From NCBI GenBank assembly GCA_963810615.1, contig CAWEOA010000002.1:654515-718514 (forward strand): a stretch of 64,000 nt of DNA. Reading direction: 5' to 3'. Shown in pieces: positions 19,926-63,386 of the stretch. Made by a program: the position numbers and the translations under genes. The DNA is from an uncultured Gammaproteobacteria bacterium (GTDB lineage: Bacteria; Pseudomonadota; Gammaproteobacteria; DRLM01). The notes under the pieces are model-generated. The model saw only the letters and a program-made list of their open reading frames with translations. It was not told the origin of the DNA and did not search any database. Position 1 is the stretch's first letter. Every line of letters begins with the position of its first letter.

Positions 19926-21644
19926 CTATGCCGAAGTGTGCAATTCGAATAGGGAAAAATCGGTTTGGGCAATGATCGCCTCGCCCAGGGCGGCGCTATG
20001 CTGGTGATCGGCGAACATCACCGTCAAGCGGTCGCCGGTAATCAAATTCTGCTTATTGTCGCACAGTAGCTGCAATTTACCATCCTTGGTGCTAATCATC
20101 AGGGCGGGCAAGGGCGGTTGCTCCATGCCGTCCTCCTCCACCACTAGTACCGGAAGAATCTCACCTGCGATGCGGGCGATCGCCACCTGCACTTCGTCAT
20201 CCCCGATACGCTGGAGACGCACCACATAGCCCAAGCGACTGGCGGCAAACTCGTCCTCTTTACTGTTGTAGGCCACCAGGCGACCCACATAGACCGGCAG
20301 CCCGTATTCGCCCTCCTGGACATGCAGCTGAATACCTCCCACCCCTTCGTCGGCAACCACCCAGCGCGGCTCGCTTATCCCCTCTTCGTTTTCGGCGACG
20401 ATATTGATGTGCTCCGCCAGCGCATCCCAAAAGCGCCGCTCCTGCTTAACGGTTTCTTTATCGCTATCCTTACGATTGATATCGTCAAATAAGCGATACA
20501 CCGTTTCGAAGCCTCCATAGAGGCGGGCATGCTGCCCCCCGAAGACGCGTTGCCGCGGCTCATGACGCTGGCGGGGCTGCACGCGGTGGAGCAGCAAGTC
20601 CAGAAAGATAATCCGCTCCCGCTCCGGAATTTCCTGTATGGGCGTACTGACGGACGATGTGTCCGCAGCAGACATGAGCGTCAAGCGATCCTCGGTTGCC
20701 TGTCTCAGAATGGGATTGAGATCAATGAGTAAAGATGCCTCCCCTTGATCCGAGGTCCGGCTAAACTGCGGCGGAACTGCCTGGTCATGATAAATAATGC
20801 AATGCCCGGCGGGAACATCACCAATGCTCTCATCGTCCTTGATGAAAGGTTCTTCGATGACACTCAAATAACGAACTACCCGATAGGCAAGATGGACCGG
20901 CCAACTGATCACATCCAACAAACCGGTCAGCTCGATGGCGAGATACAAATGCTCGAGATTTGCCATCTTGGGGAACAGTTCCACGCTGGAAACACTGTCC
21001 TCCACCGTCCACTGAATCTTGAGCGGATATTTCGCCTTCATGTCCCAATCGCTGCGCAAGGCGAAGAACAAATGATTAACGTCCCGCCAAATATAGTCGG
21101 GCAATTTTTGATAGCGAAAGGCCAGCAGCAGCTGCTCGAAACGAGCGCACTCGAAAATACGTAATGCGACCGTCAGGGTCCGTTCCCGGGTCGCGTGACT
21201 CTGATCGGGGTCGGCCCAATCCTGGCGGAAGAGCAATTTGTAGTTGATCGCCAACTGTTCGACGGCGCGTACGGCGTGGGAAATGGTTTCCCGCTGCTCG
21301 CGGGTCTCCGGAATCCCACCGCCCTGCTGGAAAAAGCGGGCAAACAAACTACTGACCGCGGCCACTACTTCATTCAATACTATATTGCTGATGCGGGTCC
21401 GCTGTTCGTAACTCATAGGCAGCGGGTTGATTTTATCAAGATAACGGTAGGCGGCCTGCAGCAACAGCAAGGGACCAAGCCGTTGTTGGATCACCTGATT
21501 CCACATGGCTTCGATATTTTGATCGATATCCTTCCCCACCTGCAGGGTCAGAGGGATATACAGAGCAACGACTTGACGATCCGTGTTCTTCTTGCGACTA
21601 CCGAACAGCGACTTGAATAACCCGGACTTTGTAGAATCTGCCAT
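19926..21644 (-). CDS. hypothetical protein, 572 aa, no recognisable motif
   Basis: It is a long uninterrupted ORF in a coding-dense region with codon usage like its neighbours. No signal peptide or TM helix was seen, and the start is taken at MADSTK. Confidence 0.6.
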   Translation of the reverse strand: MADSTKSGLFKSLFGSRKKNTDRQVVALYIPLTLQVGKDIDQNIEAMWNQVIQQRLGPLLLLQAAYRYLDKINPLPMSYEQRTRISNIVLNEVVAAVSSLFARFFQQGGGIPETREQRETISHAVRAVEQLAINYKLLFRQDWADPDQSHATRERTLTVALRIFECARFEQLLLAFRYQKLPDYIWRDVNHLFFALRSDWDMKAKYPLKIQWTVEDSVSSVELFPKMANLEHLYLAIELTGLLDVISWPVHLAYRVVRYLSVIEEPFIKDDESIGDVPAGHCIIYHDQAVPPQFSRTSDQGEASLLIDLNPILRQATEDRLTLMSAADTSSVSTPIQEIPERERIIFLDLLLHRVQPRQRHEPRQRVFGGQHARLYGGFETVYRLFDDINRKDSDKETVKQERRFWDALAEHINIVAENEEGISEPRWVVADEGVGGIQLHVQEGEYGLPVYVGRLVAYNSKEDEFAASRLGYVVRLQRIGDDEVQVAIARIAGEILPVLVVEEDGMEQPPLPALMISTKDGKLQLLCDNKQNLITGDRLTVMFADHQHSAALGEAIIAQTDFSLFELHTSA

Positions 21645-50067: not shown

Positions 50068-50096
50068 CGTCAAATCATACTGGACTATTTTGGTAC
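50068..50096 (-). promoter_or_regulatory. candidate IscR-type operator upstream of iscR-suf
   Basis: Read on the minus strand the site is atagtccagtatgatttgacgggtgg, which loosely resembles the IscR type-1 consensus ATASYYGACTRwwwYAGTCRRSTAT. Confidence 0.25.
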
Positions 50097-59422: not shown

Positions 59423-61237
59423 ATGGTCACCATGAATGCATCGACACAGGCTATCGACGATACTCTTTTCAAGAGTTTTACGCCTTTAAGCTCCTTAGAC
59501 AATCACACGCTCGAGAAGCTGGCTCGACACGCAGTCATCAGACGCATAGATGCCGGCAATTTTCTATTTGAACGAGGGGATACGACACCGCAAACCCTGT
59601 TTTTATTGGAGGGAGAGATTGAGCTGTGCTCTCCTGTTTTCCCCACGCAAAAAGTGACCACGGGCTCCGACGCCGGGCGCTATCCGTTGGCCCATTCATT
59701 CCCAAGACAATTCACGGCACTGACGGTAACTGATGTCCGCGTATTGATCCTGCCTCTGGATATTTTGGAAGTCATGCCCGTCGATACCGCCCAAACAAAA
59801 TCGGTATCCAATGGCGCGGCAAGCGATGTCTGGAAAACCCAATGGCTGAACTCACCCATGCTGAGCAATCTTTCGGCCGCCAACAAAGAAGACCTGTTGT
59901 CGAAGATGGAAGAAATAAAGGCTCAGGCGGGCCAGGTCATCATCCATCAGGAAGAGCCGGCGGACAGCTATTTCGTCATTAAAAAGGGTCGCTGCAGCGT
60001 TTCGCGGCGACCCGCTCCCGGCGCCCGCGATGTCAAGCTGGCGGAATTGACGGAAGGCCAGGGTTTCGGCGAAGAAGCGCTGATCACCAATGTCTCGCGC
60101 AATGCCTCGGTAACCATGCTCAGTGATGGCGTCTTGCTGCGTCTTAGAAAGCAAGACTTCATCACCTCATTGGCCAGGCCGCTGCTACATCACCTGCCCT
60201 TTCAGAATGCCATCGAGCTGGTAGAACAAGGCGCGGTGCTGATCGACGTCAGGGCCCCCGAGGAATTTGAAATCGACGGACTGATTGGCAGCCTCAACAT
60301 GCCGCTCCCCGTACTGCGATTGAAGGCCAATCGCCTTCACCGCGACTGCACTTATATCGTCTATTCCAATACCGGCCATTTCAGCTCTGTTGCTGCATTC
60401 CTTTTGATCCAACAAGGACTCAAGGCCTACGTTTTACAGGGCGGCCTCAGCACCGCGCCTAAATATCGCATGAAGCGTGGAGCCTTCAATGATCATGAAT
60501 CGCAGCATTACGACACCCACGGCTCGTCAAAAACGGTATTGCCGTTTCCTAACGGTAACGACGTCCACCATGGCAATTCCGCCAAGAAGCAGCAGCAAAC
60601 CCAGGTAGATTGGAATCTCATTTCCGACGACGTGTTGTGGCGCACAACCATCGGCCATCGCCAAGATGACAGTGTAGAGGCGGCACTAGCGGCCAAACCA
60701 GCCAAAGATACGCGGCCACCTGCCGACCCGACTTTACAGGGCTTTGATGATATAAGGCTTTTTACAACCATCCATCCCGTACAGGATATGAAAATCGGGG
60801 ATGCCGATGAATCGCAACCCATAGCTGGATATTCACAACCCGACACTACTCCTAACAGCCATCCCGCCAAGACATTTAACCAGCGCCACTCGGAAACGCA
60901 ACACTGGAGCGACAAACCCTACCAACGCTCATCAAAACGCCCGATATTTACACTACTGACCATCCTCCTGGCACTGAGTGGCGGCGTAGGCTATTGGTAT
61001 TTCACCACCGGATCCTTACCGACCAAGCTCAATGAGGCGTCACCGCTCCTTCTTGAACAGCAACGCAAACTAGATGCCAAGGTAACACGCCTTCTGGATG
61101 CCATCGCATCCATGCCGGCCCTTCAACACCGACCCAAGGAATCAAATGAGCCTGAAATCCCATCTTCGCCGCCGGTAAGCGATAGTAAGATCGAACCATC
61201 TGCCGTCATTGCGCAGGGTCAGATACTTCGCAAGTAA
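59423..61237 (+). CDS. multidomain protein: two cyclic-nucleotide-binding domains, a rhodanese domain and a C-terminal TM helix
   Basis: It has cNMP-like FxxGDxxxxLFLLEGEIEL and GFGEEALIT...A blocks. A rhodanese motif follows (LIDVRAPEEF...YIVYSNTGHFS), then a Pro/Gln-rich region and a hydrophobic helix (FTLLTILLALSGGVGYWYF). Confidence 0.75.
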   Translation: MVTMNASTQAIDDTLFKSFTPLSSLDNHTLEKLARHAVIRRIDAGNFLFERGDTTPQTLFLLEGEIELCSPVFPTQKVTTGSDAGRYPLAHSFPRQFTALTVTDVRVLILPLDILEVMPVDTAQTKSVSNGAASDVWKTQWLNSPMLSNLSAANKEDLLSKMEEIKAQAGQVIIHQEEPADSYFVIKKGRCSVSRRPAPGARDVKLAELTEGQGFGEEALITNVSRNASVTMLSDGVLLRLRKQDFITSLARPLLHHLPFQNAIELVEQGAVLIDVRAPEEFEIDGLIGSLNMPLPVLRLKANRLHRDCTYIVYSNTGHFSSVAAFLLIQQGLKAYVLQGGLSTAPKYRMKRGAFNDHESQHYDTHGSSKTVLPFPNGNDVHHGNSAKKQQQTQVDWNLISDDVLWRTTIGHRQDDSVEAALAAKPAKDTRPPADPTLQGFDDIRLFTTIHPVQDMKIGDADESQPIAGYSQPDTTPNSHPAKTFNQRHSETQHWSDKPYQRSSKRPIFTLLTILLALSGGVGYWYFTTGSLPTKLNEASPLLLEQQRKLDAKVTRLLDAIASMPALQHRPKESNEPEIPSSPPVSDSKIEPSAVIAQGQILRK

Positions 61238-61597
61238 CACAGTGTTCTATTCAGTGCCACCTATCGACTGATTTTTAACCGCTGCGGTCTATGCATGTTC
61301 AACATGCGCGACAGTTATGGACTATATTTAAAAATGAAGTTTAACTTCAAAGATGGTAGCGGCAAGAAGTTACAGGCATATATCTGCTGCAATATTCAGT
61401 CCACCATTCACTTTTTGATCTGACAGGAACTGTCTTTGACCGAATAGGTCAAATCGCTAGATTGCTGACCCAGGAATAATGTCAGCCTTCTTTGGCTAAC
61501 CGCAGGAATATATCTCCATGGAACGCTTGGCTACGGCACTCCGCTTTCGCGATACGTCATTAGTTTGCGCCCGTGACAAATATTTCCTGTTGTTAGT

Positions 61598-62026
61598 GTG
61601 GGAAATACTAGGGAGCTTATAGTGACCGCACTATCTCCGGCACTGGTAACTCAGCTGAAGCAGCAAACGGAGACCGCCAACATGGAACATCGCTTGAGCT
61701 TACGGACCCCGTTAAGGATGAATGTCGCCATCTACTACAATAGCCTGGGTTTATTGCAGGGTCGTTCTCTAGATGTCAGCCGTCATGGCATGTTTGTGGT
61801 CACCGGTCCAATAATGCTGCCGCTCCATGCAATTGTCGACGTTGCTTTCCCGCTCGAATCCGGCAAACACGGAAAAGTACCGCAGCGAACCCCCGCTATG
61901 GTCGTGCGCGTTGGCAACGAAGGTGTAGGCCTGATGTTCTCTAAGGAATTTGAACCCAATTCCGCTGAATATTTGGAATATGAACAACAAGCTTTTCCGT
62001 ACAGTGTGGATGCATCCACGGGATGA
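61598..62026 (+). CDS. PilZ-domain protein (c-di-GMP binding)
   Basis: It has RxxxR (HRLSLRTPLR) followed by D.S..G (LDVSRHG), which is the PilZ signature. Confidence 0.7.
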   Translation: MGNTRELIVTALSPALVTQLKQQTETANMEHRLSLRTPLRMNVAIYYNSLGLLQGRSLDVSRHGMFVVTGPIMLPLHAIVDVAFPLESGKHGKVPQRTPAMVVRVGNEGVGLMFSKEFEPNSAEYLEYEQQAFPYSVDASTG

Positions 62027-62303
62027 ACTGTTAACGACTGGAAACCTACCACATTTCTGCCAAACCATCGTTTTGCTTAAGGTATTGCCTGAAGAGGAGA
62101 CAGAGCCAAGTTGATTGGCTAGTCCGCAATTTTTTGAAATGACAACCCACCTCTGACTCAAGACAAAATATGCATATCTACCCACCACCACCTGGCCTGA
62201 CGGTGGCTACGTGGATAACAGAACCCCGCCCCACGCCTCGCGCGAGGTAAGAACTGAGAATTCTTCTTTTTGTTGTCTTGGAAGATTAATTTGAAGACGA
62301 CGC

Positions 62304-62411
62304 TTAGCCGCCCCACTCCTTAACCATGTATAAAACCGAAATGACGATCATCAAAATTACAGCGGCTTCGGCAAGATAACTGGAAGGATGTTCAGGAATG
62401 TGCTGTGCCAT
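62304..62411 (-). CDS. 35-aa hydrophobic small protein, paralog A (candidate type I toxin or small membrane protein)
   Basis: A GGAGGAG SD lies 8 nt before the ATG. The product MAQHIPEHPSSYLAEAAVILMIVISVLYMVKEWGG has a single TM helix. Confidence 0.45.
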   Translation of the reverse strand: MAQHIPEHPSSYLAEAAVILMIVISVLYMVKEWGG

Positions 62412-62807
62412 TGTCCATTCTCCTCCAAGCTTGAGAAGTAATTACCACTATATGGGGCCAAGCTCGGCCTGTAATGCCCCATACCCTTCTAAATATAGTC
62501 AGTAATTGGCCTGCTGTTAGGGGATGTAAGACAGATAACAGATATAAGAAGTCGTCAAGAGAAACCGAACTGCGTGCTTTTTTCTAGTGATCGTTGAAAT
62601 ATCGGATTCTATTCAGCAAGGAAGGCCGAGATTGATCACTTAATTACAAATTTGGGCGGGGATGCTTAGAACTCAAGCCCCTAAAGGCTCAAAGCAGAAT
62701 TGTTAAAAAAGATCGGATTGAGTATGAGGCTCCGTAACACGGCGTCAATCAGGACACGGTCAAGAACCTGCTTTTAATATTTTCTGTTACAACACCGTCA
62801 ATTTCTT

Positions 62808-62842
62808 CCCCTCTCCCCCGATTTTAATCGGGGAGAGAGGGG
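62808..62842. repeat. GC-rich imperfect palindrome cccctctcccccg-attttaat-cggggagagagggg
   Basis: It is seen directly in the sequence, between the two small paralogous ORFs. No U-tract follows on either strand. Confidence 0.6.
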
Positions 62843-62886
62843 TATCTGCCTAACTGACAATCATGATTGCTTCACTCAGCTCAAGC

Positions 62887-62994
62887 TTACATCGGGGTCA
62901 TGGTGAACAGGAAAATTACAGCAAGGGCGACAGCCGAGAGCACGAGCAGGCTGGCCAAATAGCTTTCCGTATGTTCAGGCAGTTCTTGATACAT
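62887..62994 (-). CDS. 35-aa hydrophobic small protein, paralog B
   Basis: An AGAGGAGAA SD lies 6 nt before the ATG. The product MYQELPEHTESYLASLLVLSAVALAVIFLFTMTPM shares M.Q..PEH..SYLA with paralog A. Confidence 0.45.
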   Translation of the reverse strand: MYQELPEHTESYLASLLVLSAVALAVIFLFTMTPM

Positions 62995-63309
62995 GATCTT
63001 ATTCTCCTCTGTTGATATGACTCACCCTCTCATGAGATAAGCGTAAAGCGTTTCACTCATGAGTAACCACAATCATAATATGCCTATCCAAATTCTGCTA
63101 GTATCTGTAAGGGTATTTGAGCAAATCAGTAAAGATTTCAACGAAGGAGTTAATGACCCTGCCTTTCCTTTTGCATAAATAAATGCGAGTAGGCCCATGC
63201 CTTGGCGCTAAATAGCATCCAGGACACTTTAATATCTCTAATACGCGAGCGAGTAAGTTTGGACCGCGCTATTGCGCAATATGATTGAAGAAATATTAGG
63301 AAGGGCTAA

Positions 63310-63386
63310 TGGTGGCTACGGGTGGACTCGAACCACCGACCTCAGCATTATGAGTGCCGCGCTCTAACCAGCTGAGCTACGTAGCC
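63310..63386 (-). tRNA. tRNA-Met (anticodon CAU, elongator-like)
   Basis: The reverse complement reads GGCTACGTAGCTCAGCTGGTTAGAGCGCGGCACTCATAATGCTGAGGTCGGTGGTTCGAGTCCACCCGTAGCCACCA. It has a perfect 7-bp acceptor stem, a D-arm, a CAU anticodon, a T-arm GGTGG/CCACC and an encoded CCA, and it closely resembles E. coli metT. Confidence 0.9.

Follow-up and report, generated by a model that had tools for sequence, protein, structure and literature searches.

The DNA analysed here, referred to below as the window, is a stretch of 64,000 nucleotides of contig CAWEOA010000002.1 (assembly GCA_963810615.1) from an uncultured gammaproteobacterium, and the subject is a pair of short minus-strand genes, here called pepA and pepB, lying between a tRNA-Met gene and the gene of a PilZ-domain protein. 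By the evidence of comparative sequence analysis both are true protein-coding genes under strong purifying selection, and they belong to a family of small membrane proteins that, as far as public data show, has not been described before and is confined to a clade of uncultured Gammaproteobacteria whose metagenome-assembled genomes (MAGs) are labelled Chromatiaceae. The analysis demonstrates coding status, purifying selection, the family and its narrow range, the architecture of the gene units and their independence from the tRNA and from any fixed neighbour. As for function, we lean towards regarding pepA and pepB as paralogous, separately transcribed bitopic small membrane proteins that act on a partner through their N-terminal motif, a reading in which our confidence only slightly outweighs our doubt.

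Two paralogous peptides under purifying selection

According to the list of open reading frames (ORFs) of the window, pepA and pepB each comprise 35 codons and encode the peptides MYQELPEHTESYLASLLVLSAVALAVIFLFTMTPM and MAQHIPEHPSSYLAEAAVILMIVISVLYMVKEWGG, respectively (Table 1). The two have M1, Q3, P6, E7, H8, S11, Y12, L13 and A14 in common, which gives the pair motif M-x-Q-x-[IL]-P-E-H-x-x-S-Y-L-A, followed by one hydrophobic helix, and a single BLASTP comparison aligns them with 11 identities in 29 positions (E = 3e-7). Likeness of the two copies at the DNA level is limited to the ORF and short regulatory motifs. Each ORF is preceded by a strong Shine-Dalgarno (SD) sequence, AGAGGAGAA for pepA and GGAGGAG for pepB, with the ATG 8-9 nt downstream. 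The starts lie 583 nt apart; 476 nt separate the end of pepA from pepB, and 278 nt separate pepB from the PilZ gene end. Between the PilZ gene and tRNA-Met there are 1283 nt in which the largest ORF does not exceed 52 aa. A preliminary description of this DNA had pointed to the two 35-codon frames with their PEH..SYLA-type motif and single helix, the strong SD sequences, a spacing of about 580 bp with a GC-rich hairpin in between, and an ORF-poor region of 1.3 kb beside a tRNA, and every one of these observations was recovered. It had also supposed that such genes are usually missed by annotation, and this does not hold everywhere: exact copies of pepA exist on several public contigs, exact copies of pepB on public contigs too, and public gene calls already hold both ORFs, as 'hypothetical protein' where they are named at all.

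A profile made from the two peptides and searched against 1.84 billion representative proteins (E up to 0.001) retrieved 12 matches, nine of which are true relatives with a core of 32-35 aa and the same motif; P0006, P0009 and P0012, long repetitive proteins with a low-complexity match, were rejected as relatives. Pattern and tblastn searches found two loci among 185,579 species genomes, both in GTDB MAGs labelled 'uncultured Chromatiaceae bacterium', and 13 metagenome loci, and exact look-ups added four further ones, L027-L030 (loci are cited by such numbers throughout). The hosts are a group of uncultured sediment bacteria, and in the public data searched the family is found nowhere else. 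In Pfam no family was retrieved for either peptide at E up to 10, and 13 members of the family gave only DUF2897 (E = 0.52, one member). Sequence searches of NCBIfam, PADLOC and PDB yielded no meaningful match, and neither did PHROGs, where the best match was phrog_22362 (E = 0.089, a single member). There were no relatives among phages and IMG/VR viral contigs. Plasmids hold no true relative by tblastn; 43 matches on Ralstonia megaplasmids (E = 10) correspond to a GC-rich frame between flhB and a TetR gene, which has no start, SD or helix, and were discarded as spurious. Rfam, searched at E up to 10 from the PilZ gene to the tRNA, gave nothing credible. An Antizyme_FSE match on the GC-rich hairpin was at chance level (E = 7.2), and the sub-threshold HPnc0260 and Plastid-ycf2 matches (63206-63386, +) lie on the strand opposite tRNA-Met and are artefacts of the tRNA.

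The coding evidence comes from the pattern of substitution and from the start signals. A six-frame scan of all loci with a hidden Markov model found GGAG or GAGG 6-10 nt 5' of the ATG in every copy, and GGAG and the ATG are invariant across 20 of 20 aligned leaders. Substitutions were counted between orthologue pairs by the Nei-Gojobori method. Between the window and L002, pepA shows 10 synonymous and no non-synonymous differences, and between the window and L011, pepB shows 16 and four. Among close relatives the proportion of differing synonymous sites (pS) is 0.4-0.8 and that of non-synonymous sites (pN) 0.00-0.08, and the ratio of the corresponding rates (dN/dS) is about 0.02-0.2. For pepA, compared with its orthologues in L002, L014, L016, L018, L011 and L025, dN/dS is about 0-0.08 among close relatives and 0.18-0.42 versus L011 and L025; for pepB it is 0.06-0.19 among close relatives. 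Synonymous sites differ by 40-60% within the relatives of the window clade, and by about 80% versus L011. In the locus alignments synonymous changes fall inside the motif codons too, so the constraint is on the protein and not on the RNA. Moreover, even lineages in which the DNA can no longer be aligned preserve the length of 32-35 codons, the frame and the hydrophobic helix. Support for translation of both ORFs, drawn from the invariant SD and ATG and from dN/dS, is indirect but strong. The proposal that these are small membrane proteins has thus been strengthened: the motif recurs in tblastn searches of relatives, SD sequences stand before all members, and the peptide is kept while the DNA diverges, which is the opposite of a conserved DNA with an unconserved peptide.

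The conserved part of the peptides is their N terminus. Across the family the motif reads M-x-Q-x-[IL]-P-E-H-x-x-S-[YH]-x-A, an acidic, His-containing juxtamembrane segment in which Q3, E7, H8, S11 and A14 are invariant in 13 sequences; the helix that follows retains its hydrophobicity only. Of the 15 residues in the best 15-mer, 12-14 are hydrophobic in all 19 members (14 in pepA and 13 in pepB, by the rule of PMC2887945), and the best 19-residue window has a mean Kyte-Doolittle value of 2.2-2.9 in 19 of 19, which identifies all of them as predicted membrane proteins with a single spanning helix. The N tail has a net charge of -1 to -3 (-3 in pepA), and Lys and Arg are nearly absent across the family; the divergent pepD paralogues, introduced below, are the exception, with an N tail of +1 and no Glu-His. 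His8 lies before the hydrophobic segment and has a Pro directly after it in pepB. The C tail has 0-5 residues and often ends in Trp, and most members have no charged residue there: pepA ends in the uncharged MTPM and pepB in KEWGG (net charge 0), and the tails of pepB-type and pepC-type peptides have aromatic or polar ends such as KEW(GG) and VW.

Architecture of the gene units

Five loci of the window clade were aligned and a conservation profile was computed, and 20 leaders were compared in four groups, namely pepA-type, pepB-type, pepC (pepB-like genes of other clades) and pepD (a divergent upstream paralogue in L012 and L021). Conservation of the DNA covers both ORFs together with about 150 nt on the 5' side of each, and declines in the spacer, which L011 has in a shorter form. 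The positions of the elements in the window are collected in Table 1.

Table 1. Coordinates, strand and description of the genes and predicted elements in the window (minimum free energy is abbreviated MFE, untranslated region UTR).
Feature	Position	Strand	Description
604-aa protein gene	59423-61237	+	
PilZ-domain gene	61598..62026	+	
pepB terminator-like hairpin	62247..62229	-	CCUCGCGC-GAG-GCGUGGGG, then CGGGGUUCUGUUAU, imperfect T run; MFE fold
pepB 3' UTR	62229..62281	-	mean pairwise identity 0.73-0.88 among close relatives
pepB 3'-UTR motif	62281..62270	-	CCAAGACAACAA, conserved
pepB	62411..62304	-	35 codons
SD-masking hairpin of pepB	62420..62438	-	CUUCUC (62438..62433) opposite SD GGAGGAG (62426..62420)
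pepB leader stem-loop	62450..62484	-	GUAUGGGGC ... GCCCCAUAU; MFE fold
pepB -10-like box	62492..62500	-	GACTATATT; TATATT at 62497..62492
GC-rich hairpin after pepA	62808..62842	-	35 nt, 45 nt past the pepA stop, no U tract
pepA	62994..62887	-	35 codons
pepA SD	63010..63002	-	AGAGGAGAA
pepA leader stem-loop	63029..63063	-	CUCAUGAG ... CUCAUGAG, 8 bp; MFE fold
pepA promoter-like site	63072..63101	-	CTAGCA (63101..63096), 18 nt, TATGAT (63077..63072)
Block upstream of pepA promoter	63090..63167	-	mean pairwise identity 0.65-0.89 among 4 close relatives
Upstream motif	63119..63108	-	CAAATACCCTTA, within conserved block of about 80 nt
tRNA-Met(CAT)	63386..63310	-	
GACTATWTT sites	21090-21098; 50083-50091; 61320-61328; 62492-62500	-; +; +; -	window scan

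Each gene is headed by a box of the -10 type. In a consensus scan 14 of 20 units have a sense box whose end is 76-92 nt from the ATG, and the TAT..T of the box is invariant in the 20 leaders. In five of six pepA genes the box, TATAAT in relatives and TATGAT in the window, ends 77-80 nt before the ATG, and it aligns in L016 too. Before pepB, pepC and pepD most lineages have the form (G/A)ACTAT(A/T)TT at equal distance, and L022 and L028 have variants of it; here a C directly precedes TAT(A/T)TT and there is no conserved -35 element. By consensus match these boxes are putative promoters, and the transcription starts that they imply are putative as well. The form GACTATWTT occurs four times in the window against 0.33 expected, and three of the four sites are intergenic, an over-count that fits a promoter element of the organism; with its C right before the hexamer it may be a common -10 form there. 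Two of the sites precede a gene of their own strand, namely the PilZ gene and pepB; the third intergenic site, at 50083, would be followed by a gene start at about 50203 that was deduced from the sequence and is not confirmed by the ORF list. A promoter-like TTGACG-16-CATACT in the spacer is not conserved in relatives and was set aside.

Further upstream of pepA lies a block that is also recognizable in the more distant L011, whose identity to the window over 63127..63077 is 0.70-0.85. It contains a motif of the pattern CAAATAHCYHTA, found a single time in each locus, in sense orientation throughout and about 125-139 nt before a peptide ATG, preceding pepA in the window clade or pepC in L012 and L021 (L011 5399-5410, L012 5862-5873, L021 2195-2206). 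The window has one match against 0.09 expected, a count that is partly circular because the pattern was derived from these same sequences. The block with this motif (63090..63167) is a possible regulator-binding region.

The leaders are about 70 nt long, and their stem-loop starts about 10 nt after the -10-like box. A leader hairpin is predicted in 20 of 20 units, in 14 of them with a clearly homologous stem based on CAUG/CAUG, and the CAUG on the 3' side of the stem is nearly invariant; the inner pairs change from lineage to lineage, with the pairing preserved. The pepA hairpin is homologous to that of the pepB, pepC and pepD leaders and is a local minimum of folding energy; according to RNAalifold, seven of its pairs are kept in six sequences, with G-U changes and one double change. 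In the pepB stem there are eight pairs, three of them with double changes, and the hairpin is kept with other inner pairs in L019 (GUGGGACGGC/GCCGUCUCAU) and L027 (CAUGGA/UCCAUG). No further leader copies exist in the 64-kb window. The pepB-type leaders have a second predicted element, a CUUCUC that masks the SD: UUCU is invariant, CUUCU is present in five of six, and the pairing with the SD is found in six of six, including the distant L011 and L019. A role of this element in translational control of pepB is predicted on these grounds; in pepA-type and pepC-type leaders the SD pairing is variable or absent. Two other pairings were rejected, one of the pepB SD with UCUUCCAAG of the 3' UTR, which appears in the MFE fold of the window, is not kept in relatives and is considered incidental, and one of the pepA SD with coding AUUUUCCU, which is not kept in L011 and L025. 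The AUG in the stem of the pepB leader (AUGGGG) opens a frame of 41 codons (62357-62482, -), out of frame over pepB. This frame is not conserved and has no SD, and it was rejected as a gene and taken to result incidentally from the CAUG stem. The corresponding leader AUG is in frame in L002-type relatives, which produces a 59-aa call (P0001).

At the 3' side, the GC-rich hairpin behind pepA gives the region its strongest folding minimum on either strand; 11 of its pairs are kept in six relatives, with double changes at three pairs (RNAalifold). The terminator scan skips it because the T run is absent; it is probably a 3'-end or terminator structure of the pepA transcript. Its interpretation as a repetitive extragenic palindromic (REP)-like repeat was discarded, as it is present in a single copy in the window. 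At the 3' position of pepB, canonical terminators with a hairpin and a T run are found in L011, L021, L022, L023, L027 and L028. Between stop and terminator there is a short, conserved, SD-like motif, which reads CCAAGACAACAA behind the window-clade pepB and CAAGGAUAA(U) in the pepC genes, or UAAGGAUAAU in L022, located at about 6125-6135 in L012 and at the same place after the stop in L021, L022 and L028. Judged from these predicted elements, each peptide gene is a self-contained monocistronic unit of about 250-300 nt with a -10-like box, leader, SD, ORF and 3' hairpin.

Genomic context and copy number

In the window clade the gene order is ychF, tRNA-Met, pepA, pepB, the convergent PilZ gene, a gene for a membrane protein with cyclic nucleotide (cNMP)-binding and rhodanese domains, a spermidine-synthase-like gene, DUF3579 and sucA, and the pair keeps its place next to the PilZ gene in all relatives of this clade. 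In the window the cNMP/rhodanese protein has 604 aa, with two cyclic-nucleotide-binding domains, a rhodanese domain and a C-terminal hydrophobic segment, and its gene is followed by the PilZ gene; these two genes are syntenic with the peptides across the window clade, and L019 retains the first and not the second. A Tn5-like transposase follows pepB directly in L017. On the other side of the pair, the interval between tRNA and pepA has received an integrase remnant and a NIDO/PEP-CTERM protein in L015 (1514-4412), a DUF202 protein in L016 (3299-4407) and an 867-aa TPR-GT41 protein in L011 (2051-5525). As these inserts are unrelated, the tRNA-Met gene is an insertion hot spot and an incidental neighbour. 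The tRNA context, to which the preliminary description had attached meaning, loses it in view of these inserts and of the other contexts in other clades.

Several such contexts have been found. In L019 one pepB-type gene, the only copy, follows tRNA-Arg and lies beside the cNMP/rhodanese gene. In L012, L021, L022 and L027-L030 the peptide genes lie beside a gene for a 125-aa protein with a signal peptide, with nitroreductase, hpf, DUF6763 and relA genes near. The 125-aa protein (all on the minus strand: L012 5102-5479, L022 4405-4782, L027 4206-4583, L028 2637-3014) has no Pfam match, is found on either side of the peptide gene and is the sole recurrent neighbour in that clade; a homologue was not found in the window (tblastn E = 6.8). 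L023 has yet another context, and among the loci examined no single neighbour recurs in every context. The genomes carry one or two copies: pepD with pepC in L012 and L021, pepC alone in the closely related L022, and likewise a single copy in L019, L023, L027 and L028. In two-gene loci 475-593 nt separate the genes, and each has its own promoter-like box.

Proposed action and alternative explanations

The action that we favour can be outlined as follows. The peptide would insert in the inner membrane, probably with the N terminus outside because the N tail is acidic and without Lys or Arg. The conserved juxtamembrane motif would be a functional surface at the membrane that contacts a larger membrane protein or, alternatively, a metal ion via Glu7 and His8; the peptide would not be a generic pore. 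In this scheme pepA would be the diverged one of two copies and may form a pair with pepB, and expression would be set at the leader, where the 5' stem-loop would serve stability and the CUUCUC of pepB would mask the SD. The model comes from known small membrane proteins, which bind larger membrane proteins and are often induced by stress; AcrZ, MgtS, CydX and KdpF are examples of such modulators (reviewed in PMC12648545). Like these, the peptides are within 30-50 aa, have a single helix and a strong SD, lie in stand-alone genes, as is often the case, and combine a short conserved polar segment with a variable helix under purifying selection. They differ in having no sequence similarity to them, the Pfam, NCBIfam and PDB searches being empty, and, unlike cydX and kdpF, which lie in the operon of their own complex, pepA and pepB have no linked target gene.

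Several points weigh against the favoured action. No linked partner gene backs the proposed binding of a partner, and a metal-binding role of E7 and H8 is speculation founded on two residues. The pepA hairpin has no U tract, and read-through from pepA into pepB is conceivable. Finally, several features would suit a type I toxin equally well: the narrow taxonomic range, a tandem arrangement within a long intergenic region, a copy number that varies between close relatives, and long leaders with structure and SD masking.

That pepA and pepB belong to type I toxin-antitoxin loci, in which a membrane-damaging peptide is held off by leader structure and an antisense or divergent RNA that block its translation, is the first alternative, and we consider it unlikely. 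The search heuristics of Fozo et al. 2010 (PMC2887945) look for short transmembrane ORFs in tandem and far from flanking genes, a C-terminal cluster of charged and bulky residues, folding-energy minima and a hydrophobic 15-mer. Two short transmembrane ORFs in tandem in one intergenic region, each of 35 aa where such toxins have fewer than 60-70 with one predicted helix, conform to these heuristics. The aromatic or polar ends of the pepB-type and pepC-type tails, the structured leaders of about 70 nt, the pairing of SD and CUUCUC in all pepB-type genes, the copy number that differs between close relatives and the narrow taxonomic range point the same way, and since the -10 box reads TATAGT on the opposite strand a divergent transcript is conceivable. 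On the other hand, no conserved antisense promoter was found within or downstream of the ORFs in 20 units, and none at all in the genes of the window. Five of 20 units, all of them outside the window, have an antisense promoter-like site at +63, in AT-rich Ile, Leu and Phe codons; the only recurrent antisense match is the palindromic -10 box reversed, pointing away from the gene. The plus strand has no terminator-like site in the scan and a single promoter-like one, the -10 box in reverse, and folding-energy minima coincide only with the GC-rich hairpin, the pepA leader hairpin and the tRNA, with no additional structured RNA. Such scans may miss a small RNA that acts in trans or has weak signals. 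Nor do the proteins resemble toxins: Pfam, NCBIfam and PADLOC give no match to type I toxin families (Hok, Ldr, Fst, TisB, Ibs, ShoB), a C-terminal charged cluster is absent, and the best-conserved part is the acidic N-terminal motif. In addition, the pair stays beside the PilZ gene in all window-clade relatives despite their synonymous divergence, and relatives are absent from the plasmids, phages and viral contigs searched.

Among known toxin systems the closest are the chromosomal type I toxins of E. coli that occur in tandem copies, namely Ldr/Rdl, Ibs/Sib and ZorO/OrzO (PMC2887945; PMC3919570). The likeness lies in a length below 60 aa, one transmembrane helix, tandem arrangement in a long intergenic region, an own promoter (putative in pepA and pepB), a long structured leader with a partly masked SD (masking being predicted for pepB-type genes) and a variable copy number. 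In contrast to those toxins, pepA and pepB show neither a signal of an antitoxin RNA nor homology to them, contain hardly any Lys or Arg, lack a C-terminal cluster of charges and carry an invariant acidic, His-containing N-terminal motif. The two copies have a low protein identity (31%), their likeness does not extend over a shared antisense gene, and they stand beside a PilZ gene in the relatives examined and not on mobile DNA in the collections searched. The locus agrees with the published search heuristics, but no finding of the sequence analysis shows that the peptides are toxins, and the toxin function contemplated in the preliminary description is not supported.

A second alternative, which we judge improbable, is that the peptides are stress-induced small membrane proteins acting on the bilayer itself, lowering membrane potential or metabolism and having no RNA antitoxin; such an action has been reported for E. 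coli YohP. It would agree with the stand-alone monocistronic genes and the absence of a linked partner, and with the -10 box of pepB, pepC and pepD, which, judging by its C directly before the hexamer and the absence of a conserved -35 element, may resemble the stationary-phase type of sigma-S promoters. Stress induces the production of many small membrane proteins (PMC12648545). However, the helix varies freely while the polar N-terminal motif is invariant, which argues for specific recognition rather than a bulk effect.

Other functional readings were rejected or found unsupported. A leader peptide or attenuator is contradicted by the convergent PilZ gene (+) after pepB, by downstream genes that vary between lineages and by terminators that follow the ORFs. 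A precursor of a ribosomally synthesized and post-translationally modified peptide, or a two-peptide bacteriocin, is contradicted by the absence of modification, export and immunity genes in any context. Cytochrome b559 (PsbE/PsbF) and the alpha/beta peptides of purple-bacterial light-harvesting complexes are paired, single-helix, His-bearing peptides that bind cofactors. The pair recalls them in being two paralogous one-helix peptides with an invariant His each, in bacteria labelled Chromatiaceae. A cofactor-binding pair is not supported, however: the ligand His of such peptides sits inside the membrane helix whereas His8 precedes the hydrophobic segment, their two genes adjoin in one operon whereas here a gap of 475-593 nt lies between genes that each have a promoter-like box, the gene is single in several genomes, and PDB gave no match. 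Finally, that a conserved RNA or DNA element contains these ORFs by chance is hardly credible, for although leaders and 3' regions are conserved and structured, the differences between orthologues are mainly synonymous, SD and ATG are invariant in 20 units, length, frame and helix outlast the alignable DNA, and no credible Rfam match lies between the PilZ gene and the tRNA.

Significance

Recognising small membrane proteins is difficult, and beyond model organisms few families have been defined. The present family is an unusually complete case built from sequence alone, with an invariant motif, clear purifying selection, a shared promoter box and leader structure, and two genomic contexts, which recommends it for functional work and as a positive control for the prediction of small ORFs in MAGs. 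A bolder suggestion, which we regard as doubtful, is that the family either founds a new type I toxin-antitoxin family, in which the CAUG stem-loop, CUUCUC and 3'-UTR motif would be controls for an unseen RNA antitoxin, or forms a metal site at the membrane surface, to which each peptide of a pair (pepA and pepB, or a homodimer where the genome has one copy) would contribute its invariant Glu7-His8. If the metal site were real, it would represent a new kind of minimal membrane module for metal sensing or handling, and with either a toxin or a metal-binding module a new family would be added to the respective class. As it stands, the finding is solid but ordinary: a new hypothetical small-protein family within a known class, from a poorly sampled clade.

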